Positions 1 to 62,349 of a stretch of 64,000 nt of DNA are shown here, one piece after another. The stretch lies in contig CAWHBU010000005.1 in assembly GCA_963827685.1 (NCBI GenBank), positions 160,001-224,000 of the forward strand. Direction: 5' to 3'. This DNA comes from an uncultured delta proteobacterium (GTDB lineage: Bacteria; Desulfobacterota; BSN033; UBA1163). A program made the position numbers and the translations under genes. The notes under the pieces are model-generated. The model worked only from the letters and a program-made list of their open reading frames with translations. It did no database searches and was not told the origin of the DNA. Every line of letters starts with the position of its first letter. Position 1 is the first letter of the stretch.

Positions 1-135
1 AAGAACAAATTCGTCATATTTCCTCGGTGAATAGGGCTTACCATCACACAGAATCACCTTGTTAATCACTCCATCCCTATCGAGAAAAACAGCTCTTTCC
101 TTGAATAAGGTCTTGGGTTTTGGGTTACAGGTCAT
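1..135 (-). CDS. gmhB: D,D-heptose 1,7-bisphosphate phosphatase (HAD IIIA), 5' part, truncated by window edge
   Basis: Manual translation from ATG at 135: MTCNPKPKTLFKERAVFLDRDGVINKVILCDGKPYSPRKYDEFVL. FLDRDGVIN is the GmhB DxD motif; lies downstream of gmhA. Confidence 0.8.
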   Translation of the reverse strand, partial: MTCNPKPKTLFKERAVFLDRDGVINKVILCDGKPYSPRKYDEFVL

Positions 136-143
136 GGGTAACA
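109..143. repeat. Five phased 7-nt units (GGTnnnn), left arm of inverted pair around first four-helix-bundle gene
   Basis: GGT at 109,116,123,130,137 (ggtcttg ggttttg ggttaca ggtcatg ggtaaca). Confidence 0.85.
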
Positions 144-184
144 AAAGCAAGGTAATGATCGGAGATAGGTAAATAAAAAGATTC

Positions 185-573
185 CTATTCCTTTCTGGAG
201 GATTTCCAGATCTCTAAAGATTTTTCAAGGGCTGTTAACATTCGACCACATTCATCGTACCGATTCATAAGGTCATCAAATTTATCTTTTTCAAAATAAT
301 TTTTTTAAAAACCATTTTGAGATGATGCTTTGATTCTCTTATTTCAGCATGTGCTCTGTTGATTCCTTCCAAATACATGTTAATATGTCTATTATTCCAG
401 CCCTCAGCTATGTTAGCAGGAGCAGAATTTGAGGAGCGCCTTAACTGAGAACCAAGTTCAAAGAGTTCGAAACTTGGAAATGTAAAAGTTAGCTCATTTA
501 CTTCTAAATGAAGTTCACATAACTTCTGATATACCTCCAAATCCTCAAAACTCTTAATCCTCTTTTTTCCCAT
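185..573 (-). pseudogene. Four-helix-bundle protein (IVS/TIGR02436-like), frameshifted at an A7 run
   Basis: SFEDLEVYQ...SQLRRSSNSAPANIAEG signature. ORF stops at 265, but the -1 frame after TTTAAAAAAA (300-311) reads NYFEKDKFDDLMNRYDECGRMLTALEKSLEIWKSSRKE*, the expected last helix, ending at 185. Confidence 0.8.
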
Positions 574-649
574 TTGCTAACATGCTTTTTAAATTATGAA
601 AGCATTCCTAATACATTACTTAATCCCGCCCATGTTATGTATGAAAGTA

Positions 650-685
650 ATTTACCTAAAACCTCTAACCTAACACCAAAAACCT
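650..685. repeat. Five phased 7-nt units (ACC), right arm, inverted relative to 109-143
   Basis: ACC at 654,661,668,675,682. Reverse complement of 652-685 matches 108-141 at 26/34 nt. Overlaps the gmhA stop codon. Confidence 0.85.
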
Positions 686-1286
686 ATCTCTTCTGAACAC
701 TTTCCCACTTCATTTCTGATATCTTGAGGGAAGGATGCGAAACGATAAGGTGTAAAATAATACTTTGAAAAGATTCGGTATGAGGGGTAATTGTCTCCTG
801 GTTAACTGTTGGCACAATTACACATGCATCAGCAATCTTTGCTGTATACCCCCCATCTCTACCAACAATTCCCAAGACTTTTGCCCCTATTTCCTTTGCA
901 TAATCCAAGGCGCGGATTAGATTAACACTGATATTCTTTTCCGAGTTCCCTCCTCCCACAGAGAGCACAAACACACTATCACCGGAAGTAAGTTTACTTC
1001 CCTTTAACCAATCAACAAAAACAGATTCCCAGCCACTGTCATTCGTCCGTGCGGTTAATTCAGAGACATTGTCTATTGGCGTATAGGCTTCGATCCCACA
1101 AATCTTTCTGAAGTCATTGACAGCATGAGAGGCGTTTGCAGCCCCCCCACCTACTCCCAGAAAGAAAAGACGACCGCCTCTTCCTCGCAGTTCAATTATT
1201 GATTCCGCTATTCGCTGAATATCGCCCTTGTTGAGTGACTGAATTACCTTTTGTGTCTCACTCAAGTATTGATCTATATAGTGCAT
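684..1286 (-). CDS. gmhA: Phosphoheptose isomerase (SIS domain)
   Basis: GVGGGAANASH, SELTARTND, LSVGGG and PHTESFQ SIS/GmhA-like motifs; heptose-pathway context. Confidence 0.85.
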   Translation of the reverse strand: MHYIDQYLSETQKVIQSLNKGDIQRIAESIIELRGRGGRLFFLGVGGGAANASHAVNDFRKICGIEAYTPIDNVSELTARTNDSGWESVFVDWLKGSKLTSGDSVFVLSVGGGNSEKNISVNLIRALDYAKEIGAKVLGIVGRDGGYTAKIADACVIVPTVNQETITPHTESFQSIILHLIVSHPSLKISEMKWESVQKR

Positions 1287-1296
1287 AAGGGCCTCG

Positions 1297-1339
1297 AAAA
1301 GTTGATAAGTTTATGAGTTAATAGGTTGATGGGTTATAA
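1297..1339. repeat. Five phased 8-nt units (GTTnATnn), left arm around second four-helix-bundle gene
   Basis: GTT at 1301,1309,1317,1325,1333. Arm abuts the gmhA RBS (GAGG on minus strand, 1292-1295). Confidence 0.85.
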
Positions 1340-1358
1340 AAAATGTAAAAAGCGATAC

Positions 1359-1760
1359 CTATGAATCCTTATTTTTGCAGCGCTGGAGGTAATTGATGTA
1401 GCCGTTGACAAGGCCAACAGCATTGCTAATAAGCGCACGTCCAGTAGAATAATCTTCTTGGGTAATAAATCCGTCATCCAAAGAAGTGAGCAATTGATCA
1501 ATAAGTTCGTGGAGCGAGCCGCGACTTTGTCTGCAAAACTGAATATTCTCTTGAAAGTGAAACCTCCCGAAGCCTTCTGCTATGTTATGAGTGGTTGACC
1601 GAGCAGCACGTATCATGTCGTCAACGAGACGAAACTTTTCTTCTGGTGGATATTTTTTCACAAGTTTTGATGCAAATCTACGAACCTCGGAACATGCTTT
1701 CCAAGAGTCAAGCTCCTCAAAGCTCGTAAACCTTTTTTTCTTAGAACTTTCTTCATCCAC
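1359..1760 (-). CDS. Four-helix-bundle protein (IVS/TIGR02436-like)
   Basis: FTSFEELDSWK...EEKFRLVDDMIRAARSTTHNIAEGFGRFHFQENIQFCRQSRGSLHE family signature; GTG start. Confidence 0.9.
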   Translation of the reverse strand: MDEESSKKKRFTSFEELDSWKACSEVRRFASKLVKKYPPEEKFRLVDDMIRAARSTTHNIAEGFGRFHFQENIQFCRQSRGSLHELIDQLLTSLDDGFITQEDYSTGRALISNAVGLVNGYINYLQRCKNKDS

Positions 1761-1764
1761 TGCC

Positions 1765-1806
1765 TTATAATCTATTAACTTATCAACATATCAACATTTA
1801 ACTTTT
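1765..1806. repeat. Five phased ~8-nt units (AAC), right arm, inverted relative to 1297-1339
   Basis: AAT/AAC at 1769,1777,1785,1793,1800. Reverse complement is aaaagttaaatgttgatatgttgataagttaatagattataa. Begins 3 nt after the epimerase stop. Confidence 0.85.
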
Positions 1807-1809
1807 CAG

Positions 1810-2757
1810 TTACGGGATTCTACCAGTTGCCATTTCTTGCCGGATATAATCAATTGAATTCTGTAACCCTACATCAAGCGGTGTCTTCGGTTTCCAGTCG
1901 AGACTTTCTGCCTGAGTAATATCAGCCAGAGTCACTTGAGCTTCCCCAGGAAGATCATCTTTATAAATGGGATCTGGATTAACTCCAAGGATTCTTGAGA
2001 TTTTATCAAGGATCTCGAGAACAGAATAATTTTCTCCTGAACCGATATTAAACGTTTTTCCATTCGTTCGGTCGTCCCGGATACAAATTAGATGGAAATC
2101 ATTCACATCATCTACATAGACAAAGTCGCGTCTTTTTTCACCAGTTCCATAAATGATCGGCTGCTCACCTTTAAGGAGCTTAATCATAAAGGCGCTCATC
2201 ATGGGGGGAATTGTACGTCGATAATCCTGAACTGGGCCATAGACGCAGAAGTATCGTAACGCTGTAAATCTTAGACCATAAAATTCCCCATACGCTTTGG
2301 CAAAATAAAGAGAAGCCAACTTACTTACTGCATAAAAACTTTCTGGTTTTAATTCCCATTCCGGAGTGGGATAAACGGATGATCCCTCATAAAGCGCAGA
2401 ACTCTCAGCATACACAACCTTTCTCACCCCTGCCCTTCTTGAGGCCTCAAAGACATTTACTGTCCCGGAGACATTGACCTCCGCGGTCTCCACAGGGTCA
2501 GCCTGGCAATCCGCAATACAGTTTTTAGCCGCAAGATGAAAAACCGTATCGACCTCCCTAAATAACGGAATTATCTCTTTCTCCCTAATATCCAGGCAGT
2601 AAAAGTCCACTCCATCTGGAACATTTTCCCTCAGGCCGTAGGCCAGATTGTCAATTCCCGAAACTTCATACCCTTCGGCAAGAAGCCTTGCCGCCAAGTT
2701 GGAGCCAATAAATCCAGCAACACCCGTTATTAAGATTTTTCCTTTATCAGACATCAT
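1810..2757 (-). CDS. NAD-dependent epimerase/dehydratase (extended SDR)
   Basis: GVAGFIG, YAVSK (YxxxK), RYFCVYGP. Confidence 0.9.
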   Translation of the reverse strand: MMSDKGKILITGVAGFIGSNLAARLLAEGYEVSGIDNLAYGLRENVPDGVDFYCLDIREKEIIPLFREVDTVFHLAAKNCIADCQADPVETAEVNVSGTVNVFEASRRAGVRKVVYAESSALYEGSSVYPTPEWELKPESFYAVSKLASLYFAKAYGEFYGLRFTALRYFCVYGPVQDYRRTIPPMMSAFMIKLLKGEQPIIYGTGEKRRDFVYVDDVNDFHLICIRDDRTNGKTFNIGSGENYSVLEILDKISRILGVNPDPIYKDDLPGEAQVTLADITQAESLDWKPKTPLDVGLQNSIDYIRQEMATGRIP

Positions 2758-2806
2758 TTAATCAAGAAATCATCCTCATTTCTTATCAAACGATTTCTCT
2801 AACAAA

Positions 2807-3826
2807 TTACCAGTAAGGCGACCACCCATTTCTTGGATTGAATAAGTTTATGAGAACTTTGGTACCTTCAAAGTCGAACCGAAATCGCATTTCCCTTAGT
2901 CCTTCCTCAGCCATAGCCTTCCTCATGCGGTCTCGATGCTCTTCACAGTAAAACATGAAAAAACCTCCGCCGCCCGCGCCCATAATTTTCCCGCCGATAG
3001 CACCATTCTCTTTGGCTTTTTCATAGAGCCGATCAATTTTTGAATCAGATATTTTTCCTGAAAGATTTTTCTTGGTTTTCCAATGTTTGTCAAGGAGATA
3101 ACCAAACTTGGCCAAATTTCCGTCCTCTAAGGCACCTTTGATTTGGTATCCTATTTCTTTGATTCGGTGAAGAGTATCAACCACACGGCTATCTTCTTCT
3201 GCGGCTGCCTTACTTTGGGAAGAAAGAATGTCATTCGCTCCTCTTGAGATCCCTGTAAAGAAAAGAAGAATATTTTTTTCAAGCTCATCAATGGTGGCAT
3301 GACTTATCTGGCCATTACAAACTCCTACTTTGCCATCCTTTTCAATTTCTAAACACGTTAATCCTCCGAATGCGGCCAGATACTGATCATGTTTTCCTAT
3401 TGGCTTACCGAGAATGTCAATCTCGATTTTACAGGCCTCCTCAGCGAGATCTTGAAGGGTTAGTGAATCGCGTCTCAGAGCGTGAAGTGCGTTTAGTAAC
3501 CCAATAGTATAAGCACCGGAGGAGCCCAATCCAGTTCCTGCAGGCACGTCAGCCATTGAGACTATTTCGATTGCTTTCTTAAACCCAAGTAATTTTAAGG
3601 CTTCTCGCACAATTTCGTGTTGTACGTCATCTACTGAGGGAATCGTCTCGCTCTTGGAATATTTTACACGGATTAGATCGTCGACAATTGGCTGGTTCAA
3701 ACTGATGAACATGTATTTATCGATTGCCGCACTGAAAATAAAACCGCCATATTTGGAGTAATAGGAAGGAAGATCCGTACCTCCACCACCTAACGAAACT
3801 CGAAAAGGAGTACGTGTAATAATCAT
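2807..3826 (-). CDS. hddA: GHMP kinase, heptose-7-phosphate kinase-like
   Basis: TPFRVSLGGGGTD, PAGTGLGSSG, GKIMGAGGGGF. Confidence 0.8.
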   Translation of the reverse strand: MIITRTPFRVSLGGGGTDLPSYYSKYGGFIFSAAIDKYMFISLNQPIVDDLIRVKYSKSETIPSVDDVQHEIVREALKLLGFKKAIEIVSMADVPAGTGLGSSGAYTIGLLNALHALRRDSLTLQDLAEEACKIEIDILGKPIGKHDQYLAAFGGLTCLEIEKDGKVGVCNGQISHATIDELEKNILLFFTGISRGANDILSSQSKAAAEEDSRVVDTLHRIKEIGYQIKGALEDGNLAKFGYLLDKHWKTKKNLSGKISDSKIDRLYEKAKENGAIGGKIMGAGGGGFFMFYCEEHRDRMRKAMAEEGLREMRFRFDFEGTKVLINLFNPRNGWSPYW

Positions 3827-3841
3827 AATAAAACCCCCAAG

Positions 3842-4567
3842 TTATTGGTTAATTGTTATTCGATCTGCAAATATTCCTTGGACCCTTTCATAGTCTTCCA
3901 TCCTATCAATCCACCAGATTTGTTCGCCCGCACTGAATTTATAACCGTAAAGACTTTCACCTTTTGCCAATAGATTCGGTAGTATCTCCCTACCAAAGTC
4001 GGAAGGTGCGCCGGAGGGAATGTATTGAAACACCTGCTTCTCAAGCACTAAAACACCTGCGTTCACCCAATGACTGATCGCCTGGTTTGCCCGGGGCTTT
4101 TCTAAAAAATACGTAACCCTGTCATAGGCGTCGAGAGAAACCACGCCGCTCTGGCTCACTTCATCGCGGTAGTGAACCACGATTGTACCAATGCCCTGAT
4201 GTTCATGATGGAACGAAAGTAAACGGTTTAGATCGAAATCAATCAAATTATCGCCGTATATGACAAAAAAGGTGCCCTCAAAAAACCCCTCAAGCTTCTT
4301 AACAGCCCCTGCTGTGCCCAGAAGCTCAGGCTCATAGGAATAAGTAATGTTTACACCAAAACTCGAGCCATCACCGAAATGATTCATCACAACTTCAGGA
4401 CAATGATGCAGGTTAATAGCAATCTCATGGATTCCCGAACGGGAGAGGAAGTTAATGTTATGTTCCAGAATAGGCTTGCCAGCGATGGGAATCATGGGCT
4501 TGGGCAATGTCTCAGTAAGCGGACGGAGGCGTGTACCCTCACCTGCGGCGAGCAATAAAACCTTCAT
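3842..4567 (-). CDS. NDP-sugar nucleotidyltransferase (HddC/Man-1-P guanylyltransferase-like)
   Basis: LAAGEGTRLRPLT...PKPM, GTAGA, VIYGD. Confidence 0.85.
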   Translation of the reverse strand: MKVLLLAAGEGTRLRPLTETLPKPMIPIAGKPILEHNINFLSRSGIHEIAINLHHCPEVVMNHFGDGSSFGVNITYSYEPELLGTAGAVKKLEGFFEGTFFVIYGDNLIDFDLNRLLSFHHEHQGIGTIVVHYRDEVSQSGVVSLDAYDRVTYFLEKPRANQAISHWVNAGVLVLEKQVFQYIPSGAPSDFGREILPNLLAKGESLYGYKFSAGEQIWWIDRMEDYERVQGIFADRITINQ

Positions 4568-4594
4568 GATTTTTGCAGAATTTTTGGATTGGGC

Positions 4595-5647
4595 TTATCC
4601 TAAATGAACAACATAACCGCTTCGTGAGGATTCATAAATTGCATCGATTAGGCGCATTGCTTGTAAACCGTCCACACCATTGGCTACTGGTTGACGCGCT
4701 TCATGGATTGCTGTGGCAAATTCAGTCCATTCAGCGTGCCACGAGCAATCGGGGCCGGGGAATTCGAAATGTTCTTCGTCAGGTGGACCTGACTCGGCAT
4801 GCCGTTTACTCCATGTTAAACGCTCCAACCCGTAATTGCCGCCTAAGCCATCCACACAAAGATATCCGTTCTTTCCAAAAATTTCGAAAGAAAACCGGTT
4901 CTTCCACTGTGTCCAACTTGTATGCCATTGAGCGACCCGACCGTCATCAGTGCGGAGCACGACGAAGGCGTTGTCCTCCAGTTGGTAACTCAGGGCAGTC
5001 TCTCGGCTACCACCCTGAGTCTTGAAATATCCCAGATCCCAGAAATAGGTTGCAATTGAGCCAAAGGCTTCCCCAAAATCGCCCATAAACCAGCGGCAGA
5101 GGTCTATGATATGTACTCCCTGATCGAGAAGCTCTCCGCCACCAGCCAAATCAGGATCAGCCCGCCATTCTTTGTCGTAACCGGGCCGGCCACCGTGTCC
5201 ATACACCGCTCGTATGAACATGATGGGACCGATTGAACCCTGGCTGCACAGTTCGTGAGCCCTCAAAATTGCCGGGTGATGGCGGTGATTGAAACCAGTC
5301 TTTAAAAGAAGATTTGCGCGCCGAGCAGCTTCGACCATCTGATGGGCCTCATTGCAGTTGCGACCCAGCGGTTTTTCGCACAGAACGTGCTTGCCGTGTT
5401 CCATCGCCGCAACGGTAACCGGCATCAGAAACTTATTCGTCGTTGAGACAATCACAGCTTCAATATCGTCCCTGGTCACAACCTCTTGCCAATTCGTCGT
5501 CGCCAAGCAATCCATTTCCGCTGCTAAACTTCTGGCGCGCAACCCATCAATGTCTGCCACAATGATGAGCTCATCGTCCTTCGATTGGTGCACGACATTG
5601 GCTCTACGCTTCCCTATTAGACCGCACCCAACAATGCCAATTTTCAT
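4595..5647 (-). CDS. Gfo/Idh/MocA oxidoreductase
   Basis: GIVGCGLIG, HVLCEKP, GGGELLDQGVHIID. Confidence 0.9.
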   Translation of the reverse strand: MKIGIVGCGLIGKRRANVVHQSKDDELIIVADIDGLRARSLAAEMDCLATTNWQEVVTRDDIEAVIVSTTNKFLMPVTVAAMEHGKHVLCEKPLGRNCNEAHQMVEAARRANLLLKTGFNHRHHPAILRAHELCSQGSIGPIMFIRAVYGHGGRPGYDKEWRADPDLAGGGELLDQGVHIIDLCRWFMGDFGEAFGSIATYFWDLGYFKTQGGSRETALSYQLEDNAFVVLRTDDGRVAQWHTSWTQWKNRFSFEIFGKNGYLCVDGLGGNYGLERLTWSKRHAESGPPDEEHFEFPGPDCSWHAEWTEFATAIHEARQPVANGVDGLQAMRLIDAIYESSRSGYVVHLG

Positions 5648-5650
5648 CTA

Positions 5651-6511
5651 TTAACCCAAATCCTTGATCAGAGGTTTGATCGTAAAGGGATCCAGGCGAC
5701 GAATCGTATACATGGGCGTGGCATTGAGTTCATCTGCCTTTCCTACCCACTCCTGCCATGGATCATGAGGTGCACTAATTAATTTGCCTGTTAAAGTACC
5801 GGATTCATCCGACGCAAGAAATATGGCTAGGGCAACAACCGCTTCCAAAGAATCACCACCACTGTGTTTTTGTCGTTTTGCCTGGGATAAGGCGAATTCA
5901 CCCACTGCATCACCAGCAGCCAGAACTTCATCCAACATTCGTGTATTGATCGCACCGGGAGCAATTGCATTGACCTGGATGTTAAAGGGTTTAACTTCTT
6001 CGGCCACTGTCTCTGTGAACCGCACTAACGCTGCCTTGGAGGCTGCGTAGGCAGAGAAGTTGGGACGGGGTGCTGTAGCACCACCCCCGGACAGGTTGAT
6101 AATCTTTCCTCGCTGTCGCTCGATCATGCCAGGAAGCACAGCCTTGCAACATAGCATCGGCCCCACTAAATTCACCAGGATTGTCTGAATCCAGTCTTGG
6201 GAGTCACATTCGACAATCAGACCAATTGGTGGCTGGCGGCCAGCATTATTGATTAAAATATCAATCTTCCCAAATTTGGCCAAAACCATCTGGATAAGCT
6301 GCTCTACAGAAGCAGGATCTGACACGTCGGTTGGTATTACAACTGCCTTACGCCCCATTTTCTGAATCTCGATAGCGCTCTTTTCAAGCTCCTTTTGTGT
6401 TCTTGCAGTTAAAACAACATTGGCTCCTTCCTGAGCGAAGCCATGTGCCAAAGCCTTTCCAATGCCACGGCCAGCACCAGTAATCAGTACAACCCTATTT
6501 TTGAGTTTCAT
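5651..6511 (-). CDS. Short-chain dehydrogenase/reductase
   Basis: TGAGRGIG, NNAG, YAASK. Confidence 0.9.
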   Translation of the reverse strand: MKLKNRVVLITGAGRGIGKALAHGFAQEGANVVLTARTQKELEKSAIEIQKMGRKAVVIPTDVSDPASVEQLIQMVLAKFGKIDILINNAGRQPPIGLIVECDSQDWIQTILVNLVGPMLCCKAVLPGMIERQRGKIINLSGGGATAPRPNFSAYAASKAALVRFTETVAEEVKPFNIQVNAIAPGAINTRMLDEVLAAGDAVGEFALSQAKRQKHSGGDSLEAVVALAIFLASDESGTLTGKLISAPHDPWQEWVGKADELNATPMYTIRRLDPFTIKPLIKDLG

Positions 6512-6570
6512 TAGTCTTTATAGTCCCTCTGGTCTATTTAGTCTATCTGGTTTATTGGATCTATTTAGCC
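6512..6570. repeat. Phased 9-nt tandem array (single arm) directly upstream of SDR start
   Basis: tagtcttta tagtccctc tggtctatt tagtctatc tggtttatt ggatctatt tagcc. Confidence 0.75.
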
Positions 6571-6631
6571 TTCCTTGTCCACCTGGTAAATGAAAATTTG
6601 ACTTAAAAATTAAGTCAGAGCGGGAGGGTAA

Positions 6632-8068
6632 TTACTGGCCTGTGCCTTTGAGGACGACCCAGGCCGTTTTGGCTAGGATCTTCATGTCGAGCCATAACGA
6701 CCAATTATCGATATATTCAAGGTCCATCCGCACCCATTCGTTGAAATCATTGATCTTGTTTCTCCCATTAGCTTGCCAGAGGCATGTAATGCCGGGTTTG
6801 ATGCTTAGCTTTCTTCTATGCCAGCTCTCATACCGAACCAATTCATGAGGGCCTGCCGGTCTGGGACCAACTAAGCTTATTTCTCCCCTAAACACACTCC
6901 ATAGTTGAGGTAGTTCATCAAGACTGTATTTTCGCAGAAATTTTCCCACCCTTGTAATCCTTGGATCATTTTTAATCTTAAAGACAGGACCTTTCATCTC
7001 ATTTAATTGGGCCAGCGTTTCTTTAATATCATCAGCATTGGCTAGCATTGTCCGAAACTTCCAACTCCGAAAAGGTTTCTTATTAAAGCCCACAACGTTC
7101 CACTTATAAAAAACTGGACCTCCGGAGGTTGATTTGATTAGTATTCCTATCACCAAGAAAAGCGGAGAGAGAACGATCAGCAAAGTTCCGGATATAAGAA
7201 TATCAATCAACCTTTTCAAATATAGGGCCCACTCATTATGGGGAGTATTTAAATAACTAATGATCGACAATCCATAAACATTATCTACATTAACTTTTTT
7301 GGTCAGCTTCCCCAGAAAGTCAGAATTAATGCGGATTTGAACCCCCTCTCGTTCACAGATTTCAAAAACTTCTTCAAACTCGAGGCGGCCCAATTCATTG
7401 CCTGAGGCACATACGATTACTTCGTCCACAGAATATTGATGAAGGATCTCTGCGATCTCTTTATTGCTCCCGAGGATCCTCTTCCCATAGCGTTCCTTCT
7501 CTTTGAGGGAATCACGATCCACCACGAGCCCAACGATATCCAGTCCCCATCCGAGATTCGCTTCAATGGTTTCAATGAAGGTCTTTGTCCTCGATCCAGC
7601 CCCAACGACAAGGACTTTCTTTCTATTTTTTCCCTTTCCCCGAATCTCTTTTGCAACTTTAAAGAGAATGACTTTTTCTCCGGCAAGGCTGATAAAGTTT
7701 ATAATGAAAAAGATACCAATGTAAGTTCGGGGAAAATATTCAAAACGGAATATGGAGTAAGCAGCAGAAAGGATGAGGGTGCCAATTAAAGAAGCCTTTC
7801 CAACATGTTTCATTTCCCGCTGAAAGGAAGTAAACCTTTGATAGGTGTAGGCCCCCAGCCTCGTGAGAATAATCACCCATACGATGGCAAAAACAATGAT
7901 TTTCCAAAAAAGATCATGGGCGATTTCAATATCTCTTCCAAGGGGGGCCCACGGAAAGGTTAGTCTTGCCCAGTTCCAGACGAAATACGCTGCTAAGAAG
8001 CTGAAGGCAGTAGTTAGAGCATCAGCCAGTTGGGCAATTCTTCTATGATAACTCGGCCGCCAGAGCAT
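6632..8068 (-). CDS. Polyprenyl glycosylphosphotransferase (priming sugar transferase, WcaJ/WbaP-like)
   Basis: N-terminal TM helices; KFRTM...DPRITRVGKFLRKYSLDELPQL...GPRP. Confidence 0.92.
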   Translation of the reverse strand: MLWRPSYHRRIAQLADALTTAFSFLAAYFVWNWARLTFPWAPLGRDIEIAHDLFWKIIVFAIVWVIILTRLGAYTYQRFTSFQREMKHVGKASLIGTLILSAAYSIFRFEYFPRTYIGIFFIINFISLAGEKVILFKVAKEIRGKGKNRKKVLVVGAGSRTKTFIETIEANLGWGLDIVGLVVDRDSLKEKERYGKRILGSNKEIAEILHQYSVDEVIVCASGNELGRLEFEEVFEICEREGVQIRINSDFLGKLTKKVNVDNVYGLSIISYLNTPHNEWALYLKRLIDILISGTLLIVLSPLFLVIGILIKSTSGGPVFYKWNVVGFNKKPFRSWKFRTMLANADDIKETLAQLNEMKGPVFKIKNDPRITRVGKFLRKYSLDELPQLWSVFRGEISLVGPRPAGPHELVRYESWHRRKLSIKPGITCLWQANGRNKINDFNEWVRMDLEYIDNWSLWLDMKILAKTAWVVLKGTGQ

Positions 8069-13300: not shown

Positions 13301-13464
13301 CTTTTGATTATCAATCCTATGGAACCCGGCCCAATTAGGAAAACAACTATTTGGACAAAATATGAATGATAGATATGTTTGGAGTGCACCCCTGAAACTG
13401 GACAAAATGTGTTAGAGTGGTGACAGGATCTTAGCCCCCTGAATGGGGGAGAAAGGATCTTGTC

Positions 13465-13812
13465 ATGAGAAACCAACGGCGCTTTTCTCCAGAACTTAAA
13501 CGTTCTATCGTCGAAGAGCTTTTGAGCCAAACCTCCTCTCCTGCCCAGATCTGTCGACGCCATAATATCTCCTCCGGCCTCCTCTATCATTGGAAAAGAC
13601 AATATGCCCGAGGGAAATTCGGCAATGAACCGACCAAGGAAGCAGCCCTGGCCGATCGCGTCGAACAGCTGGAACGACTGGTCGGCCAGTTGACCCTGGA
13701 AAAAGAGTTCTTAAAAAAAGCCTTGAAACATACCCTCGAAAAAGCCGACAGAAGAGAGAATTCCTTCTCCATCACCTCCATAAAGGAATCCAAGGGGGGT
13801 GTCAGCTCATGA
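13465..13812 (+). CDS. IS3 transposase OrfA (HTH)
   Basis: RRFSPELKRSIV...ICRRHNISSGLLYHWKRQY. A7G slippery site at 13713-13720; its -1 frame is open into orfB. Confidence 0.9.
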   Translation: MRNQRRFSPELKRSIVEELLSQTSSPAQICRRHNISSGLLYHWKRQYARGKFGNEPTKEAALADRVEQLERLVGQLTLEKEFLKKALKHTLEKADRRENSFSITSIKESKGGVSS

Positions 13813-14633
13813 ATCTTCCGAGGAGTAGCTTCTATTATCCGCCGAGAGAGAAAACGCCCTCTCAACAAGAACAGGAGAAGACTCTCGAGGGACGAATTGA
13901 AGCCCTCTGTTTGGAATTCCCTCGCTATGGCTATCGAAGGGTAACGGCTCAGTTGCATCGTGAAGGTCTTCTCATCAACCACAAGAAAGTCCTTAAGATC
14001 ATGAAAGCCAATGATTTAGTCTGCCGCCCGCACAGGAAATGGGTCAGAACGACCCAGAGCGATCATGGCTACCCCCTCTATCCCAATCTTCTGAAGGATC
14101 GTCCTATTACGGCCATCAATCAGGCTTGGGTTGCCGATATTACCTATATCCGTATTACTTCGTGCTTTGTCTATCTGTCTGTTCTGTTGGATCTCTTCTC
14201 TCGAAAGGCTATCGGCTATGCGGTGTCTCAAAGTCTTCATGCCTCATTGACTCTTCAAGCCTTAGGGATGGCTTTGTCTCAAAGGGACCCTCCCCGAGGC
14301 TGCATCCACCACTCTGACCAAGGGGTTCAGTATGCCTCTTGGGAGTATGTTCAAAGGTTGAAGAATCACCATTTTCAAATCAGCATGGCTCGTAGAGGAA
14401 ACCCCTATGATAATGCCTTTGCTGAGAGCTTTATTAAGACCCTCAAGAGTGAGGAAATCGATCTTTGGGAGTATCGGACTCTTGAGGACGTTCACCAACG
14501 ACTTCCCTTTTTTATTGAAGAAGTGTATAACAAGAAACGATTGCACTCTGCACTGGGATATTTACCCCCAGATGAATTTGAAGCCATGGTCATAAAGACT
14601 AATAACTTTCTACACCCCTGTCTATCACTCTAA
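13809..14633 (+). CDS. IS3 transposase OrfB (DDE, rve)
   Basis: YGYRR, WVADITY, HHSDQGVQY, DNAFAESF; ATGA overlap with orfA. Confidence 0.92.
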   Translation: MNLPRSSFYYPPREKTPSQQEQEKTLEGRIEALCLEFPRYGYRRVTAQLHREGLLINHKKVLKIMKANDLVCRPHRKWVRTTQSDHGYPLYPNLLKDRPITAINQAWVADITYIRITSCFVYLSVLLDLFSRKAIGYAVSQSLHASLTLQALGMALSQRDPPRGCIHHSDQGVQYASWEYVQRLKNHHFQISMARRGNPYDNAFAESFIKTLKSEEIDLWEYRTLEDVHQRLPFFIEEVYNKKRLHSALGYLPPDEFEAMVIKTNNFLHPCLSL

Positions 14634-24315: not shown

Positions 24316-24422
24316 GGGCTTTTTCTGTTTATCGAGTTTATTGGGCTTCTTGGGTTTAAAGCCTGGTAACTTCCTATTTTTAATCAATTCAACTCAAGAA
24401 ACCCAAGAAACTCAAAAAACTT
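24316..24422. repeat. Inverted arms of five phased 9-nt units, no gene inside, directly after NusG-paralogue stop
   Basis: G(T/C)T at 24318,27,36,45,54; AA(T/C) at 24382,91,400,409,418. Confidence 0.8.
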
Positions 24423-24423
24423 A

Positions 24424-24975
24424 TTATGCCGCCTTTTTAATATGCGAACGAGAGATTTGAATGGGTACCTCAACACCAATCAGATTGAGCAGAATCCTTA
24501 CCCGTCCATTATCTGAGATCTTCTTCTGAAAGATTCCGTTGAATTCTTTAAATGGACCTGAAGTAATCTGAACGACGTCGCCCTCTTTTAGTTCTTCCTC
24601 TAACTTTACAAGATTATCCTTCCCCATTCTCTCCTTAATCGCCAGGACGACTTTATCAGAAATAGGCATCGGCCCATCTCCAAAACCCAGAAGTTTACTG
24701 ACCCCCCTTGTCCACTTCACCTTATAGTAATGAAGATTAAGATCGAGTCTTGCAAAGAGGTAGCTTGGAAAGAAGGGTTTTATCGTCTGAATTACGTTTC
24801 CGTTTCGATATTGATGGTTTTGGATCAAAGGAAGGAAGGTTTCAATCTTTTGATTAAGGAGATGAGTCTCCACACGATGTTCAGCGCCTGGCTTAGTATG
24901 GACAACAAACCAATCGAGACCGTCAAATGAATTTATCGGACTGCTTTGGTCCTCTAAATTCATCTTGCCCCCCAT
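24424..24975 (-). CDS. NusG-paralogue antiterminator (RfaH/UpxY/LoaP-like)
   Basis: WFVVHTKP, PFFPSYLF NGN domain; KOW motif GDVVQITSGPF. Confidence 0.88.
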   Translation of the reverse strand: MGGKMNLEDQSSPINSFDGLDWFVVHTKPGAEHRVETHLLNQKIETFLPLIQNHQYRNGNVIQTIKPFFPSYLFARLDLNLHYYKVKWTRGVSKLLGFGDGPMPISDKVVLAIKERMGKDNLVKLEEELKEGDVVQITSGPFKEFNGIFQKKISDNGRVRILLNLIGVEVPIQISRSHIKKAA

Positions 24976-30905: not shown

Positions 30906-30974
30906 AATGCGTCACTTCAAAAGACCTTGACACAAGCTATACTAAAATGTTAAAAAAATCAATAATATCATTGC

Positions 30975-31045
30975 AGATTGAAGAATTTAGGGATTTAGGA
31001 ATTTTGAAATTCGCAATCCCTCAATTCCTGAATTCTTTAATTCAT
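30975..31045. repeat. Inverted phased 8-nt unit hairpin in rpsT leader
   Basis: ATT at 30977,85,93,31001,31009; AAT at 31015,23,31,39; ends ~8 nt before the AGGAGG RBS. Confidence 0.8.
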
Positions 31046-31066
31046 TAAGAAAAAGGAGGCGAAATT

Positions 31067-39048: not shown

Positions 39049-39061
39049 AGCTTATTCTTTT

Positions 39062-39147
39062 TCCCTCATCCCCTTCCGCCCTCAAGGGGCAAAGGTAAGC
39101 CTGCTTGCCCTGCCTATTGCAGGCAGGCGCAGGCAGGGGTGGGGGTA
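39062..39147. repeat. Nested GC-rich palindromes (REP-like)
   Basis: cctgcttgc[cctgcctattgcaggcagg]cgcaggcagg (39100-39137) inserted in the arm of a ccctcatcccc...ggtgggg hairpin. Confidence 0.7.
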
Positions 39148-39160
39148 AATCTTCATTCCG

Positions 39161-39760
39161 TCAAAAATTATAAAAGAAACGCTCTCGAATTCGTTCCGCC
39201 ATGGATCCTGCCGTCTTTTGAATGGCAGCTTGTTTAGCCGCTTCGTTGGTAACACCACTGGATGAAGCCCGAAACCATTGGCTTTCACTCAAACCATTCT
39301 CCTCCCAAAGGACCTTCCCGGTCCGGTCCTTCAGAGATAAACCGACGACGATACCGATCTGATATTGCAAAACAAAACCAGATTTATCATAAGCAACTGA
39401 ATAGGTGGTAAAAGATCCGACAACACCTTCCAAAATGGCATCTGCTTCTGCCCGGCTTACGACCTTCACCCTTCTATCTTGGATGAACTCGTTCAAAAAA
39501 GCTTGAGTGAATGGGATTTCAATTCCAGGCTCAAAGGTATTGTTTTTGAACGTTGGGATGGCAATGGAACTGAGACCTGGTGGAACATGTGTCTCCTTAC
39601 CGACCATCTGGTATCCACAGGCCACTAGCAGAACCAGGCTGATAATTGATAACCACCTGTAATTTCGGATTTCGGATTGCGGATTGGGGAATTTCTCTGT
39701 GGTTGAGTTAACAGGTAAAGACCCTAAACTGACATTCTGGATTCTGTCTTCTGTATTCAT
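39161..39760 (-). CDS. lptE: LPS assembly lipoprotein LptE
   Basis: Lipobox LLVAC-GY; position after leuS; N-terminal extension encoded partly by heptamer repeats. Confidence 0.82.
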   Translation of the reverse strand: MNTEDRIQNVSLGSLPVNSTTEKFPNPQSEIRNYRWLSIISLVLLVACGYQMVGKETHVPPGLSSIAIPTFKNNTFEPGIEIPFTQAFLNEFIQDRRVKVVSRAEADAILEGVVGSFTTYSVAYDKSGFVLQYQIGIVVGLSLKDRTGKVLWEENGLSESQWFRASSSGVTNEAAKQAAIQKTAGSMAERIRERFFYNF

Positions 39761-39771
39761 CTTTTCCGTTC

Positions 39772-42369: not shown

Positions 42370-42386
42370 GCCATTCCCCGATTTAT

Positions 42387-42483
42387 AGTCCAGAGTTCGG
42401 AGTTCTTAGTCCAGAGTAAACTCTCATTTCCTAACTAATTTTTTTTCTTGTAACTCTTAATTCCGAACTCTTAACTCTAAACT
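42387..42483. repeat. Inverted arms of five phased 7-nt units between argG and leuS
   Basis: AGT at 42387,94,401,408,415; A(C/T)T at 42453,60,67,74,81. Confidence 0.85.
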
Positions 42484-42490
42484 AATTTTC

Positions 42491-43693: not shown

Positions 43694-43708
43694 GGAAACC
43701 CCCTTATC

Positions 43709-43876
43709 AATTTCCGATTTCGGATTGCGGAATTCGGATTATAGTAACTTGGATTCAAAGCTTCGCAGTCCGGATTCAACATTCTGTATTATAAGAATAT
43801 TTCCACCAATTTCGGAATTCGCGACAAAAGCACTTGAATTTACATTCCGCAATCCGCATTCGGTACTCCGCAATTG
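43709..43876. repeat. Inverted arms of five phased 7-nt units between argD and argG (~100-nt spacer)
   Basis: atttccg atttcgg attgcgg aattcgg att / attccgc aatccgc attcggt actccgc aat. Right arm lies inside the argD 3' end. Confidence 0.85.
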
Positions 43877-45063
43877 AAAAAGACTTCCTCTAAAGCCTTG
43901 ACCACTCGGTCGACTTCTTCCTTAGTGACAATCAGCGGAGGAAGGAACCGGAGCACATTTCCCATGGTGCAGTTGATGAGAATTCCTCTCTGCATCATCT
44001 CCGTGACAATAGAACCCCCCTCCATCTTCAACTCCATGCCAAGGATCAAACCTTTCCCTCGAACCTCCTCAACGAAAGGAAATTTTTTCTTGATCTTCTC
44101 GAGCTGCGACAGGAAGTAATCTCCTACGTTTCGGCAATTCTCCAATATCCCTTCGTCCAAAAAGGCTGTCAAGGCGGCTACACCCGCTGCGGTGGCCAAG
44201 GGATTCCCTCCAAAGGTGGAGGCATGGTCACCTGGGTTAAAACTCTCAGCGATTCCTTTCTTGATCAATAAAGCTCCAATGGGGACTCCTCCTGCCAATG
44301 ATTTGGCAAGCGTGAGGATATCGGGTTCAACCCCGTCATGCTCATAAGCAAAGAGTTTCCCCGTCCGGCCCATCCCCACTTGGACCTCATCAAAGATGAG
44401 GAGGAGCCCCTTCTCATCACAGATCTCACGGAGCGCTTTCAGATAACCCTCTGAAGGGCAGTTCACTCCTCCTTCTCCCTGGATGGGTTCCAACATGACA
44501 GCACAGGTTTTCGAATTGATGCCCTTCTTCACTGCCCCGATATTGTTGAAGGGGACATATTTGAACCCAGGCATCAGAGGTTCATACCCTTTGTGGAACT
44601 TCTCTTGACCCGTTGCGGTCAGGGTGGCCAGAGTCCTGCCGTGGAAGGATCGCTCCATGGTGATGATCTCATATCGATCCTTTCCCATCTTCTCCTTTGC
44701 ATATTTCCGGGCCAATTTCATTGCACCTTCATTGGCCTCAGCCCCGCTATTGCAGAAGAAGACTTTATCAGCAAAGGAGTGCTTACAAAGAAGAGAAGCG
44801 AGCTGGATCTGAGGTTCGATATAATACAGGTTTGAGACATGGATCAGTCTTTCTGACTGATCTTGAATGGCCTTGACAACTTTCGGGTGGCAGTGGCCTA
44901 AACTGCATACCCCCAGGCCCGATACAAAATCCAAATATTCTTTGCCCTCCATATCCCAAACCCGAGTTCCCTTCCCTCTGACCAGAAGCACGGGATAACG
45001 GGCATAGGTATTGGCCACGTATTTTTCCGATAACATCATCATGGTTTGAGAATCCATCTGCAT
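43840..45063 (-). CDS. argD: Acetylornithine aminotransferase
   Basis: NSGAEANE, FHGRT, EPIQGEGG, DEVQVG, AKSLAGG. Confidence 0.93.
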   Translation of the reverse strand: MQMDSQTMMMLSEKYVANTYARYPVLLVRGKGTRVWDMEGKEYLDFVSGLGVCSLGHCHPKVVKAIQDQSERLIHVSNLYYIEPQIQLASLLCKHSFADKVFFCNSGAEANEGAMKLARKYAKEKMGKDRYEIITMERSFHGRTLATLTATGQEKFHKGYEPLMPGFKYVPFNNIGAVKKGINSKTCAVMLEPIQGEGGVNCPSEGYLKALREICDEKGLLLIFDEVQVGMGRTGKLFAYEHDGVEPDILTLAKSLAGGVPIGALLIKKGIAESFNPGDHASTFGGNPLATAAGVAALTAFLDEGILENCRNVGDYFLSQLEKIKKKFPFVEEVRGKGLILGMELKMEGGSIVTEMMQRGILINCTMGNVLRFLPPLIVTKEEVDRVVKALEEVFFNCGVPNADCGM

Positions 45064-45075
45064 CTCGAAAAAATC

Positions 45076-45150
45076 AGTTTGGAGTGATTAGTCCGGTGTC
45101 CGGAGTATCTATTTTAAATCTCCGAACTCCCGAACTCCGAACTCAAAACT
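45076..45150. repeat. Inverted arms of five phased 7-nt units between argB and argD
   Basis: (A/T)GT at 45076,83,90,97,104; (T/A)CT at 45119,26,34,41,48. Confidence 0.85.
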
Positions 45151-47980: not shown

Positions 47981-48035
47981 TGCTTCAGTCCTCATTTTCA
48001 TCCCTTTCCCCACTCTCACCAGTCTTACGGATTTA

Positions 48036-48237
48036 AAATCCCAAATCCCAATTTCCAAATCCCAAATAAATTCCAACCTCCAATTCCCAATAATGAAAAT
48101 GATTTTGTTTCGAATTTGGAAATTTGATCATTGGAATCTATTTGTAATTTGGCCTGCCTGCGCGAAGCCCCGCCTGCCAAAGCCTTGTGCGGCGGGCAGG
48201 CGCTTCGGCGAAGGCAGGTGCTTGAGGCTTGGTGTTT
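48036..48237. repeat. Long heptamer-periodic inverted repeat between xerC and hslV, one arm interrupted by nested GC-rich palindromes (48153-48218)
   Basis: aaatccc-type units vs atttgg-type units with a mirrored 4-nt phase shift; deleting 48153-48218 restores atttgta atttggt gcttgag gcttggt. Confidence 0.85.
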
Positions 48238-49213
48238 ACCCCTTATTCCCGTCATTTTTCCGATCCGCACTCCTGAAACTGCGAGGATGGGCCTTGTCAT
48301 AGACCTCCATCAATTTCCCCATACTGACGTGGGTATATCTCTGGGTGGTCGAGAGGCTCGAATGTCCTAACATCTCCTGAATCTCCCGGATATCAGCCCC
48401 GGCATCCAAAAGATGCGTTGCAAACGTGTGACGGAGGCTGTGAGGGCTGACTTTTCGGAAAATGCCCGAATGTCTTACATACTTCTTAACCAATCTTCCC
48501 ACACTCCGTGCAGTCAATCTCCCTCCTAAGGAGTTGACAAAAATAGGGCCATCTCCCTTTACCATTCCTCGTTCTTCCAAATAGGACTTCGTTGCCTCTA
48601 TGGCTTTCATACCGACCGGGACGATGCGCTCTTTCCTTCCCTTCCCCATCACTCTCACGATGCCCAAGTCCAGATCCAATTGATCCGAATTCAATCCCAC
48701 CAACTCGCTGACACGCAATCCGCTGGAATAAAGAAGTTCTAAAATGGCTCGATCCCTTAAACCCTTCTCCTTCGACCCTTCTGAAGGCCTTTCAGAAATA
48801 CTCTTGGGTGATTCCATCAACCGGAAGGCCTCATCCACAGTGAGCGTGGTGGGAAGGGTCTTCTCCACCTTCGGAGTCGAAACGCTTTTGGCCGGGTTAG
48901 AAGGAATCACTTGCTCTCTGACCAAATATTTAAAAAAAGAGCGCAGCGTGGAAATCTTTCTGGCGATGGAACTCTTCTTATTTTTCCGGTGGAGGAAGCT
49001 TAAATATTTTCGAATGGCTATGCGATCCACTTTTTCTATCTCCACTTCCCCCGTAGGACTAAGATACATTCCCAAACTCTTCAAAAAATCCTCAAATCCC
49101 TCTAAATCCCTTCGGTAACATCGACAGGTATGAGGTGAGGCGTTCTTTTCAACAGACAGATAATGTATAAATTGATGGATGAAACCACGCTTATCAACAA
49201 ACCGAGAAGCCAT
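48236..49213 (-). CDS. xerC: Tyrosine recombinase XerC
   Basis: RDRAILELLYSSGLRVSE, GKGRKER, HSLRHTFATHLL, LGHSSLSTTQRY; upstream of hslV. Confidence 0.92.
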   Translation of the reverse strand: MASRFVDKRGFIHQFIHYLSVEKNASPHTCRCYRRDLEGFEDFLKSLGMYLSPTGEVEIEKVDRIAIRKYLSFLHRKNKKSSIARKISTLRSFFKYLVREQVIPSNPAKSVSTPKVEKTLPTTLTVDEAFRLMESPKSISERPSEGSKEKGLRDRAILELLYSSGLRVSELVGLNSDQLDLDLGIVRVMGKGRKERIVPVGMKAIEATKSYLEERGMVKGDGPIFVNSLGGRLTARSVGRLVKKYVRHSGIFRKVSPHSLRHTFATHLLDAGADIREIQEMLGHSSLSTTQRYTHVSMGKLMEVYDKAHPRSFRSADRKNDGNKG

Positions 49214-49628: not shown

Positions 49629-49673
49629 CCTGCTTGCCCCGCCCTCCGTCGGGACCGGGGCCGGCAGGCAAGC
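49629..49673. repeat. Nested GC-rich palindrome (REP-like)
   Basis: cctgcttgc-cccgccctccgtcgggaccgggg-ccggcaggcaagc; same cctgcttgc start as 39100. Confidence 0.6.
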
Positions 49674-49691
49674 GTAAAGAGGACTAAAAAT

Positions 49692-49734
49692 GAAAGGCCC
49701 TATCTTCAAAGCTGAGGTAGGGCCTTTCTGTTTT
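49692..49734 (+). terminator. Intrinsic terminator after dodecin (between convergent genes)
   Basis: gaaaggccctatct...aggtagggcctttc stem followed by tgtttt. Confidence 0.8.
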
Positions 49735-59656: not shown

Positions 59657-60376
59657 TTCTTATCTTCTCTGAAGTAATTCTTAGCTATCGCAAGCCTTTC
59701 GGGGGTCCCTATGTCAAGGAGTCTTTTTTCGGTAACGTATCCATATAAACCTTTATCTAAAACTTCTGGGAAGAGGTCGTACTCCAGTGACAGTTTCTGA
59801 CCCGATGGTATCTCTTTGAGTATCTTTTTATCAAAGACATACATACCGGCATTGATAAGATCATTTCCATTTACGGGGATTTTTTCACCAAAGCTAATGA
59901 TCTTTTGATCTCCATCCAATCTGATTACTCCATACTCTACAGGGGTTTCCATTGTGGTCACGGCAATCGATATTAGAGGCTCCTTTTCCAATATGGAACT
60001 TGATGAAATCCTCTATGTCTATTTCACACAGAGAATCACCATTTAAAACCAAAAACATATCGCTCTCTATAAACGATTCTGCGTTCTTTATTGCACCTGC
60101 AGTTCCCAGAGGTTGATCTTCGTCGGATACCACGAAGATCAACCTCCCTCTCTTATTCTTGTAATACCTTTTAATCAAATCCCCTTTAAAACCCGTACAG
60201 AGGATGAAATGAGTGAAACCATAACGCGCCACGTAATCTACCAGGATGTCCAGAAAGGGCCTGCCGCTTATCTCTGCCATTGATTTGGGACGGTCACCGA
60301 CGACATCTCTTAGCCTCATCCCCAGACCACCACAGAGAATGATCACATCCATATCCTTAGTCCTAATTTTTCTCAT
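59653..60376 (-). pseudogene. HddC-like nucleotidyltransferase split by a 1-nt frameshift near 59978
   Basis: ILCGGLGMRLR...GTAGA...LNGDS (59894-60376) continues as LISIAV...YGVI...INAGMY...DIGTPE in another frame. Confidence 0.8.
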
Positions 60377-60383
60377 GTGATTT

Positions 60384-61385: not shown

Positions 61386-61395
61386 AACCTGCTCT

Positions 61396-62349
<954 letters not shown>

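Follow-up and report, generated by a model that had tools for sequence, protein, structure and literature searches.

In the 23S rRNA of Coxiella, an intervening sequence (IVS) carries an open reading frame (ORF) of the PF05635 family ("S23p") within a 28-bp stem of terminal inverted repeats that is cut by RNase III, and two to three tandem GACAGAT heptamers, whose copy number varies among strains, directly precede its ATG (PMC4990558). In the passages of that paper that concern the IVS, the Coxiella ORF is reported to be decaying, versions lacking an ORF are described, and ORF-bearing IVSs are cited for Leptospira too. Tandem heptamers are also known from other settings. These include the GGGAATC arrays of Xanthomonas, with 70 and 75 convergent inverted pairs (PMC4692102), the TAACTGA arrays of Beggiatoaceae, Cyanobacteria, and Bacteroidetes, which mostly lie within a few nucleotides of start codons (MacGregor 2015, PMC4679880), and the heptamer repeats of Nostoc, for which the authors postulate an unidentified binding partner (bioRxiv 10.1101/2022.06.06.494920). 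Here, we describe two genes for four-helix-bundle (4HB) proteins of the PF05635/TIGR02436 family, 4HB1 and 4HB2, in a 64,000-nt stretch of DNA from an uncultured delta proteobacterium (contig CAWHBU010000005.1, positions 160,001 to 224,000; hereafter, the window). Each gene lies between inverted arms of tandem 7- or 8-nt units at a cistron junction of a putative NDP-heptose operon. On balance, and with no more than moderate confidence, we read both genes as IVS-type selfish gene cassettes carried within mRNA.

Both cassettes are encoded on the minus strand. The 5′ arm of cassette 2 on the mRNA (1769-1806) consists of five 8-nt units with a GTT core and lies a few bases past the stop codon of an epimerase gene (1810-1812); read on the plus strand, AAT occurs at 1769 and AAC at 1777, 1785, 1793, and 1800. 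Its 3′ arm (1297-1335) comprises five 8-nt units whose core reads AAC on the mRNA and GTT on the plus strand (at 1301, 1309, 1317, 1325, and 1333), and it ends at a GAGG eight bases before the ATG of a gmhA-like gene (1284-1286). Cassette 1 is built from 7-nt units, again five in each arm. Its 5′ arm (652-685) has a GGT core and begins at the gmhA stop codon (684-686; plus-strand ACC at 654, 661, 668, 675, and 682), and its 3′ arm (108-141), with an ACC core on the mRNA, holds the ATG of a gmhB-like gene (133-135; plus-strand GGT at 109, 116, 123, 130, and 137). The original prediction, made from the sequence of the window, had reported these phased units, their complementarity, and their placement at the upstream stop codon, the gmhA ribosome-binding site, and the gmhB start codon, and it was exact on each point.

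At the best ungapped alignment, the arms are complementary at 26/34 positions in cassette 1 (108-141 versus 652-685) and at 26/31 in cassette 2 (1297-1327 versus 1769-1799), values reached by 0/1000 arm shuffles. In an inverted-repeat search of positions 1-2000, the arms of cassette 2 were the longest repeat found (31 nt, 84%) and those of cassette 1 the third longest (24 nt, 71%). Compared with mononucleotide shuffles, arm-arm duplex energies had z scores of -4.6 (plus strand) and -4.2 (minus strand) for cassette 1 and -5.65 (plus strand) and -2.75 (minus strand) for cassette 2. The arm-arm stem is present in the minimum-free-energy and centroid folds of both cassettes. Terminal inverted repeats thus form a predicted stem around the ORF, as in the rRNA IVS.

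The likeness to the IVS of 23S rRNA extends to a PF05635 ORF in a stem loop, sense orientation in the host transcript, and tandem heptamers before the ATG (PMC4990558), and the mRNA intervening-sequence analogy that had been drawn for the window is a good one. The rRNA elements differ in that they are inserted in helix 25 or 45 of the rRNA, whereas the window cassettes stand between protein-coding cistrons and not in a 23S or 16S rRNA helix. No Rfam family, rRNA included, reached its gathering score anywhere in the window, and none reached E ≤ 1 in positions 1-2000. Unlike the Coxiella IVS as described, both arms of the window cassettes are visibly periodic, and in the wider set of loci examined below the protein is under purifying selection.

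The intact protein, 4HB2 (1359-1760, minus strand), is 133 aa long and scores 78.0 bits against PF05635 (cut-off 33.8) and 71.7 bits against TIGR02436 (cut-off 24). The corresponding scores for 4HB1 (185-573, minus strand; listed ORF 265-573) are 70.9 and 64.5 bits. This gene has one frameshift in a T7A5 run at approximately 299-313, after which the last helix continues in another frame to a stop codon at 185-187; 4HB1 is either a pseudogene or the product of an assembly error. Two other 4HB genes, L010:11708-12043 and L066:10960-11199, likewise seem truncated, with the reading frame going on downstream. The motif quoted for PF05635 is GxxRxxxSxxxNxxE (PMC3936711). In a sequence alignment, S55, N59, and E62 of RxxxSxxxNxxE are invariant and R51 nearly so, and 4HB1 also reads R..S...N..E; the leading G is kept in neither window protein. 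More than 2500 homologs of 4HB2 were found, with 69-100% identity among the 120 matches listed, and a tblastn search of a phage collection with 4HB2 gave no match.

In a profile search of the PDB, 4HB2 matched 2GSC, a structure deposited with five chains, at E = 2e-18. The sequence search likewise had 2GSC as its sole credible match; two rows at E 0.005-0.03 were noise, and Avd, a protein of diversity-generating retroelements (DGRs), was not reached. Homology to 2GSC, described as a homopentameric toroid (PMC4990558), thus suggests a four-helix-bundle fold and a homopentameric state for 4HB2. The fold and the relation to Avd are taken from the literature, in which PF05635 and Avd are called homologous (CDD cd16375; structural alignment of 4DWL with 2GSC; PMC10053308). 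Across the family members compared, the 4HB protein is functional and under purifying selection, with dN/dS values of 0.02-0.29 in the 7 evaluable pairs of 12 tried (the others were saturated, identical, or failed).

We then asked how often the arms accompany the family. Searching species-representative genomes with 4HB2 yielded 80 loci (L001-L080) with 48-74% identity. They represent Thermodesulfobacteriota, Nitrospirota, Scalindua, Ignavibacteria, Chlorobiota, Bacteroidota, and further groups, and do not include the genome of the window itself. Across the 938 kb of these loci, the density of phased tracts was 5.9 per kb within 100 nt of 4HB genes and 0.18 per kb elsewhere, and block shuffles of the 938 kb contained 27-31 tracts in all. 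A tract was present in either flank of 57/78 4HB genes versus 72/537 other genes, and in both flanks of 24/78 versus 10/537. Among co-oriented spacers of 30-300 nt, 65/109 beside 4HB genes bore a tract (60%), compared with 32/224 others (14%; Fisher P = 6e-17, odds ratio 8.9), bearing out the earlier proposal that the arms belong to the cassettes and recur with the family. Under a strict criterion, 53 of 74 loci had a tract on at least one side. An energy test on short flanks with 25 shuffles gave z < -3 in 21/74 loci and z < -4 in 13/74, with a median of -1.6; since so few loci passed, whole-flank energy is a weak detector next to the array-based tests. Tandem Repeats Finder (TRF), applied to 78 loci and the two window cassettes (n = 80; L018 and L064, whose ORF boundaries could not be fixed, were left out), detected arrays on the 5′ side in 60/80 cases and on the 3′ side in 56/80, with a period of 7 in 87/116 and of 8 in 23/116.

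Phased arrays also occur apart from the 4HB genes, both in the 32 spacers counted above and elsewhere in the window. The whole window contains 14 phased tracts, taken here as 3-mers recurring over at least four units at a period of 6-10, versus 1.9 ± 1.3 (maximum 5) in 30 dinucleotide shuffles, a sevenfold excess; a 50-kb stretch of Escherichia coli K-12 contains 0. Six ORF-less hairpins in the window have arms made of tandem 7-, 8-, or 9-nt units: 24335-24425 (fold z -4.0), 30970-31050 (z -2.65), 42380-42490 (z -3.6), 43700-43880 (z -2.5), 45075-45150 (z -6.1), and 48030-48145 (z -3.4), the last with its C-rich arm first, unlike the other five. Most of them occupy the entire spacer between co-oriented genes, for example near argG, argD, and argB, and of the window's 21 co-oriented spacers measuring 30-300 nt, 9 bear arrays. 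The repeat unit differs at every element, so the window gives no sign of recent copy-and-paste within this genome. With this many arrays, two intergenic simple-repeat hairpins might simply happen to flank 4HB genes in a genome rich in them. We consider such a coincidence very improbable, as 4HB genes of other phyla are flanked in the same way and, in a related genome, an orthologous junction without the gene also lacks the arms.

The arms have a strict polarity. In coding orientation, the typical layout is (GTTAnnn)n, ORF, (nnnTAAC)n, and the TAA stop codon often forms the first unit of the 3′ array. GTT is found in 48/60 5′ arrays and AAC in 8/60; AAC is found in 46/56 3′ arrays and GTT in 1/56. 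In 33/34 arm pairs around a 4HB ORF, it is the G-rich arm that precedes the ORF. Moreover, arms match the partner of their own locus. Across 42 loci (two near-duplicates and the mis-called 4HB1 row were excluded), same-locus arms had a duplex energy of -16.0 kcal/mol versus -11.9 kcal/mol for cross-locus pairs, a difference reached in 0/5000 permutations. The result held for GTTA/TAAC loci alone (-21.8 versus -17.5; 0/5000 permutations), and the consensus units were more complementary within loci (0.734) than between them (0.675; 1/2000 permutations). Complementarity is kept in lineages with other units, such as GGGTTATT/AATAACCC (L033), GAGTTG./CTCAACCC (L038), and GGAAAAA/TTTTTC (L031).

The arrays might instead act in translation, as loading or coupling sites by start codons that are independent of a Shine-Dalgarno sequence or offer ribosomes several registers, a role already proposed for TAACTGA repeats, their inverted symmetry being secondary. 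The position of the arrays speaks for this idea: the median distance from the array end to the 4HB ATG is 15.5 nt, and the 3′ arrays lie directly ahead of the start of the next gene. By our reading, many 5′ units outside Bacteroidota resemble Shine-Dalgarno sequences (GGAG, GAGG, AGGT), and the published TAACTGA repeats share the closeness to start codons (PMC4679880). We nevertheless regard a translational role of this kind as improbable, as it leaves unexplained the locus-specific complementarity of the arms, their G-rich-first polarity, and the ORF-less hairpins that fill whole spacers.

Cassettes with arms of unrelated units were found in other subfamilies of the 4HB family, 13 in all, partly by eye. 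Five are further 4HB genes within the loci, four with both arms and one with a 3′ arm only; their units are GTCAGAA, GAAGATAG, GAAGTNN, and CAGAATT. The other eight are cyanobacterial plasmid genes with 32-43% identity to 4HB1, picked from the rows listed for 32 matched records. By eye, the 5′ array of six of these is G-rich and is matched by a complementary C-rich array on the 3′ side, with units GGAGCAG, GGAGATAA, GGGTGTG, GGCAGAA, GGGAAAA, and GGAGAGN. In one of the remaining two, an array is present on the 3′ side alone, and in the other, G-rich arrays flank the ORF in direct orientation.

The claim that did not survive the wider comparison is that exactly five units per arm correspond to five protein subunits. 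Arrays beside 4HB genes contain between 2 and 14 units (medians 4.0 and 3.7), and 16/116 round to five. The copy numbers of the two arms of a locus are weakly correlated (r = 0.39), and near-identical cassettes differ by array indels of 7, 14, and 24 nt, that is, by whole units, with the ORF unchanged or nearly so. The five units of the two window cassettes are an accident of these copies, since arrays change by whole-unit slippage. The original prediction therefore stands as to recurrence, the IVS analogy, and the existence of a cassette-free allele, and falls as to the five-to-five match.

These numbers exclude a fixed 5:5 stoichiometry, but a looser form of recognition deserves a place. The TRAP protein reads spaced triplets, and Avd is a pentameric, nucleic-acid-binding barrel of four-helix bundles. 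In a similar manner, and as the original prediction proposed for each protein and its own arms, a ring-shaped 4HB oligomer might read phased GTT or GGT cores at a spacing of 7-8 nt on single-stranded RNA or DNA, in which case arrays with or without the gene would be putative binding sites for autoregulation, processing, or propagation. We entertain this only tentatively. A fixed core of 3-4 nt with variable spacers fits a phased reader and not pure slippage or stem selection. The GTT core of the 48 5′ arrays above spans phyla within one subfamily, and different cores are seen in the 13 cassettes from other subfamilies. The arrays abut start and stop codons, the sole solved homolog is the toroid 2GSC with its five chains (PMC4990558), PF05635 resembles Avd (PMC10053308), and a binding partner has been postulated for the Nostoc heptamers (bioRxiv 10.1101/2022.06.06.494920). 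Yet core and protein are inherited together, and their co-variation may reflect shared descent only; moreover, despite its frameshift, 4HB1 has arms no less regular than those around the intact gene.

The genomic setting of the family is that of an insert at operon junctions. The upstream neighbor was co-oriented with the 4HB gene at 70/71 loci and the downstream neighbor at 73/75, compared with 585/727 of all adjacent gene pairs, and the median gaps to these neighbors were 58 nt upstream and 47 nt downstream. Sixty-four loci represent 40 junction types. One locus, L010, contains an orthologous sugar cluster (amino acid identity 81% for gmhA, 82% for the epimerase, and 76% for the short-chain dehydrogenase/reductase, SDR) and supplies the cassette-free allele that had been proposed as a test. 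Its gmhA and gmhB genes overlap by ATGA, with neither cassette nor arms between them. Arms and gene thus arrive together, because the junction that lacks the gene also lacks the arms. L010 has cassettes of its own at the SDR|hddA and hddC|epimerase junctions. Its epimerase|gmhA junction holds a 96-aa ORF (13395-13685) that is not a 4HB gene and is tentatively read as winged-helix-like. A GACTTAA-N-TTAAGTC hairpin stands upstream of this ORF (13352-13368) and also upstream of the window cluster (6590-6625).

Filled and empty sites in orthologous operons are likewise what a mobile element acting at the DNA level would leave. The arms would then be ends for recombination or transposition, as hairpins, cruciforms, or arrays of binding sites, and the ORF-less hairpins would be non-autonomous forms. 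MITEs (miniature inverted-repeat transposable elements), for comparison, are non-autonomous derivatives of insertion sequences (ISs). The 40 junction types, identities of 69-89% among the matches listed across records from different named phyla, hairpins of the same design without an ORF in the same genomes, and wobble pairs without strand asymmetry all suit such an element. By eye, L004, L007, and L012 also contain short N- or C-terminal 4HB fragments with GTTA/TAAC arrays of their own bracketing a complete cassette, which looks as if one element lay inside the remains of another. We still think a DNA-level element rather unlikely. No transposase, integrase, or reverse transcriptase (RT) adjoins the cassettes, the nearest recombinase genes in the window being those of an IS3-type pair (13465-14633) and of a tyrosine recombinase (48236-49213). 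No target-site duplication was seen by eye in the single filled/empty comparison available, that of the window with L010 at gmhA|gmhB. The distinct unit at each window element again gives no sign of recent copy-and-paste.

Returning to IVS-type cassettes within mRNA, the following course of events would account for these features. Each cassette begins with a G/T-rich 5′ array, whose 7- or 8-nt units share a GTT or GGT core; a PF05635 ORF without a promoter of its own follows, and then a 3′ array of complementary units. The entire cassette, arms included, is a sense insert at a cistron junction of the putative NDP-heptose operon, transcribed by read-through. On the transcript, the two arms can form an imperfect stem roughly 30 bp long, looping out the ORF and bringing the neighboring cistrons together. 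By analogy with the ORF-bearing 23S rRNA IVS, this stem may be cut by RNase III or may at least gate translation, and it is probably a processing or gating site; cleavage has been demonstrated for the Coxiella IVS (PMC4990558) and is proposed here for the window cassettes. Cutting or gating would make the insert tolerable for the host operon and would regulate production of the 4HB protein, and the arrays would lengthen and shorten through slippage of whole units.

The analysis shows the architecture and its presence in many phyla, the polarity and sense orientation, arm complementarity specific to each locus, an empty site in a relative, and purifying selection on the protein; we infer pairing in vivo, cleavage, and the mode of cassette movement. 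Several observations weigh against this reading. Folded as a whole, cassette 2 is not exceptionally stable (z -0.59), and its antisense strand pairs better than the sense strand (-27.8 versus -20.1). A test on wobble pairs favored the sense strand in 18 loci and the antisense strand in 12 (Wilcoxon P = 0.14; the 4HB1 row is unreliable, its 3′ arm having been called wrongly by TRF), and without a strand signal a role at the DNA level fits equally well. A stem alone does not explain periodic arms with a fixed core of 3-4 nt, and the fixed core with its variable spacers therefore keeps alive the possibility that a protein, perhaps a 4HB ring, reads the units. Under the strict criterion, 21 of 74 loci have no phased tract on either side, and the 80 loci are relatives of one protein and hence not independent events. 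Lastly, one junction type accounts for 13 loci across Bacteroidota and Ignavibacteriota (L015, L016, L020, L035, L042, L044, L054, L059, L060, L065, L070, L072, and L074), which looks like long residence rather than frequent movement. Our reading of the flanking translations suggests that this is the A|B junction of succinate dehydrogenase/fumarate reductase, and its sharing suggests either very long residence or repeated targeting.

Other described elements share single traits with the cassettes. Like MITEs and ISs, repetitive extragenic palindromes and bacterial interspersed mosaic elements (REP/BIME), and integron cassettes, they involve small intergenic inverted repeats, gene-bearing and gene-less versions, or promoterless ORFs served by read-through. 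Unlike MITEs, ISs, and integron cassettes, the window elements lack a transposase or integrase partner, and their arms are tandem arrays whose unit varies by locus, with no conserved end or attC. We rejected an IS or MITE on the grounds that arm units differ at every window locus, no duplication was seen by eye in the one filled/empty comparison, and no transposase is adjacent. An integron gene cassette was rejected, as arms flank both sides of the ORF and the sole tyrosine recombinase of the window (48236-49213) is 46 kb away. A DGR was also rejected: Pfam found no RT domain among 62 window ORFs (of at least 50-90 aa), template and variable repeats not being part of that search.

The arms more closely resemble the published heptamer arrays, which are intergenic, made of 7-nt tandem units, often placed by start codons, variable in copy number, and in some cases arranged as convergent pairs capable of forming stem-loops (PMC4692102, PMC4679880). 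In the window, too, tandem units of approximately 7 nt stand in spacers, above chance and with variable copy number. The TAAC core is common to the TAACTGA arrays and the 3′ arms of the 4HB2 subfamily. The cassette arrays differ from the arrays in these accounts in that they bracket an ORF and have a strict polarity. Three loci (L048, L051, and L053) contain many solitary TAACGAT/TAACTGA arrays of up to 10 units at other places in the Bacteroidia contigs, with the core of the local cassette arms. The binning of L051 is doubtful, since this record, though titled Bdellovibrio, shares 94% identity with L048 (Bacteroidia) across the cassette and the flanking DNA. A term search of PMC4692102 and PMC4679880 found no mention of "helix bundle," "S23," and "23S" or "intervening," and those passages of the Nostoc preprint that contain "heptamer repeats," the one term searched there, make no link to 4HB genes. 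In a literature search that did not cover subscription journals, we found no paper linking operon PF05635 genes with flanking inverted arrays.

All genes in the first 6.5 kb of the window (1-6500) are on the minus strand, in the order SDR, GFO-type oxidoreductase, sugar-1-phosphate nucleotidyltransferase, GHMP (HddA-like) kinase, epimerase, 4HB2, gmhA-like isomerase, 4HB1, and gmhB-like phosphatase. The NAD-dependent sugar epimerase/dehydratase (1810-2757) and the gmhA-like SIS-domain isomerase (684-1286) are the host genes compared with L010 above. None of the gmhA-like, HddA-like, and HddC-like proteins attains its NCBIfam equivalog cut-off, and for this reason the label of a heptose operon is reasonable yet unproven. 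The EF-P encoded in the window is most similar to proteins from sources named as Syntrophaceae (88% and 84%) and Thermodesulfobacteriota (82%). The gmhB-like gene, of which the 5′ part (1-135, or to 150) precedes the window edge, starts inside the 3′ arm of cassette 1 (MTCNPKPKTLFKERAVF), where the sole available ATG lies. Its first nine codons fall within the arm, and the gmhB start of L010, MKARAIFLDRDG (MKARAIF), has no such extension. Promoter-like and terminator-like sites were not in excess in positions 1-7000 (9 versus 11.7 expected and 7 versus 6.2, respectively); one weak promoter-like match inside the 5′ arm of cassette 2 was not used as evidence.

Further features of the window were noted. 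Two arrays that have no complementary partner do not fold: a period-9 array at 6512-6600 (repeats at 6514-6568; z +0.7) and a period-7 array at 39655-39765 (repeats at 39662-39758; z +1.1), the latter of which lies in the 5′ end of an lptE-like ORF whose true start may be further downstream. GC-rich palindromes with a GCAGGCAGG / CCTGCC motif stand at gene ends (39049-39160, 48140-48235, and 49640-49700) and may be a separate family of REP-like or terminator-like repeats. The IS3-type pair (HTH_Tnp_1, then an rve integrase core) is on the plus strand, opposite to the glycosyltransferase cluster in which it lies. A second sugar-nucleotide set (59653-62334) encodes a GHMP kinase, an epimerase, and a nucleotidyltransferase in two overlapping ORFs (59894-60541 and 59653-59991); the split of the latter is probably a frameshift.

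PF05635/TIGR02436 is a very large family and, to our knowledge, no function has been established for it since rRNA intervening sequences were described. Our results indicate that its genes are typically inserted in the sense direction at operon junctions and have inverted phased arrays on either side, which is the arrangement of the rRNA IVS. Intergenic heptamer arrays are a recognized puzzle in the accounts of Xanthomonas and Beggiatoaceae (PMC4679880, PMC4692102), and the present data tie such arrays to the 4HB family. The family has also been noted inside cas loci (PMC3936711). On a plasmid of Picosynechococcus PCC 7003 (L082), a 4HB cassette with GGAGATAA-type arms (392-748) lies between cas10/cmr2 and cmr3, which may explain reports of "cas-associated" 4HB genes. 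The association of the family with CRISPR-cas and other operons probably arises because the genes insert into operons rather than work with them. For annotation, a caution follows: arms can give host genes start codons and N-terminal extensions, as for the gmhB-like gene of the window.

A broader proposal, which we put forward as a speculation, is that PF05635 proteins and phased 7-8-nt arrays are one two-component selfish system found across bacteria. A ring-shaped protein would read the cores on single-stranded nucleic acid and would process, protect, or copy the element; autonomous elements would have the ORF between inverted arrays, and ORF-less hairpins and solitary arrays would be non-autonomous. 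If true, such a system would bring together the ORF-bearing rRNA IVS, the intergenic heptamers known from Xanthomonas, Nostoc, and Beggiatoaceae, and the question of how the DGR cofactor Avd arose, and it would also explain the presence of the family in cas and other operons.

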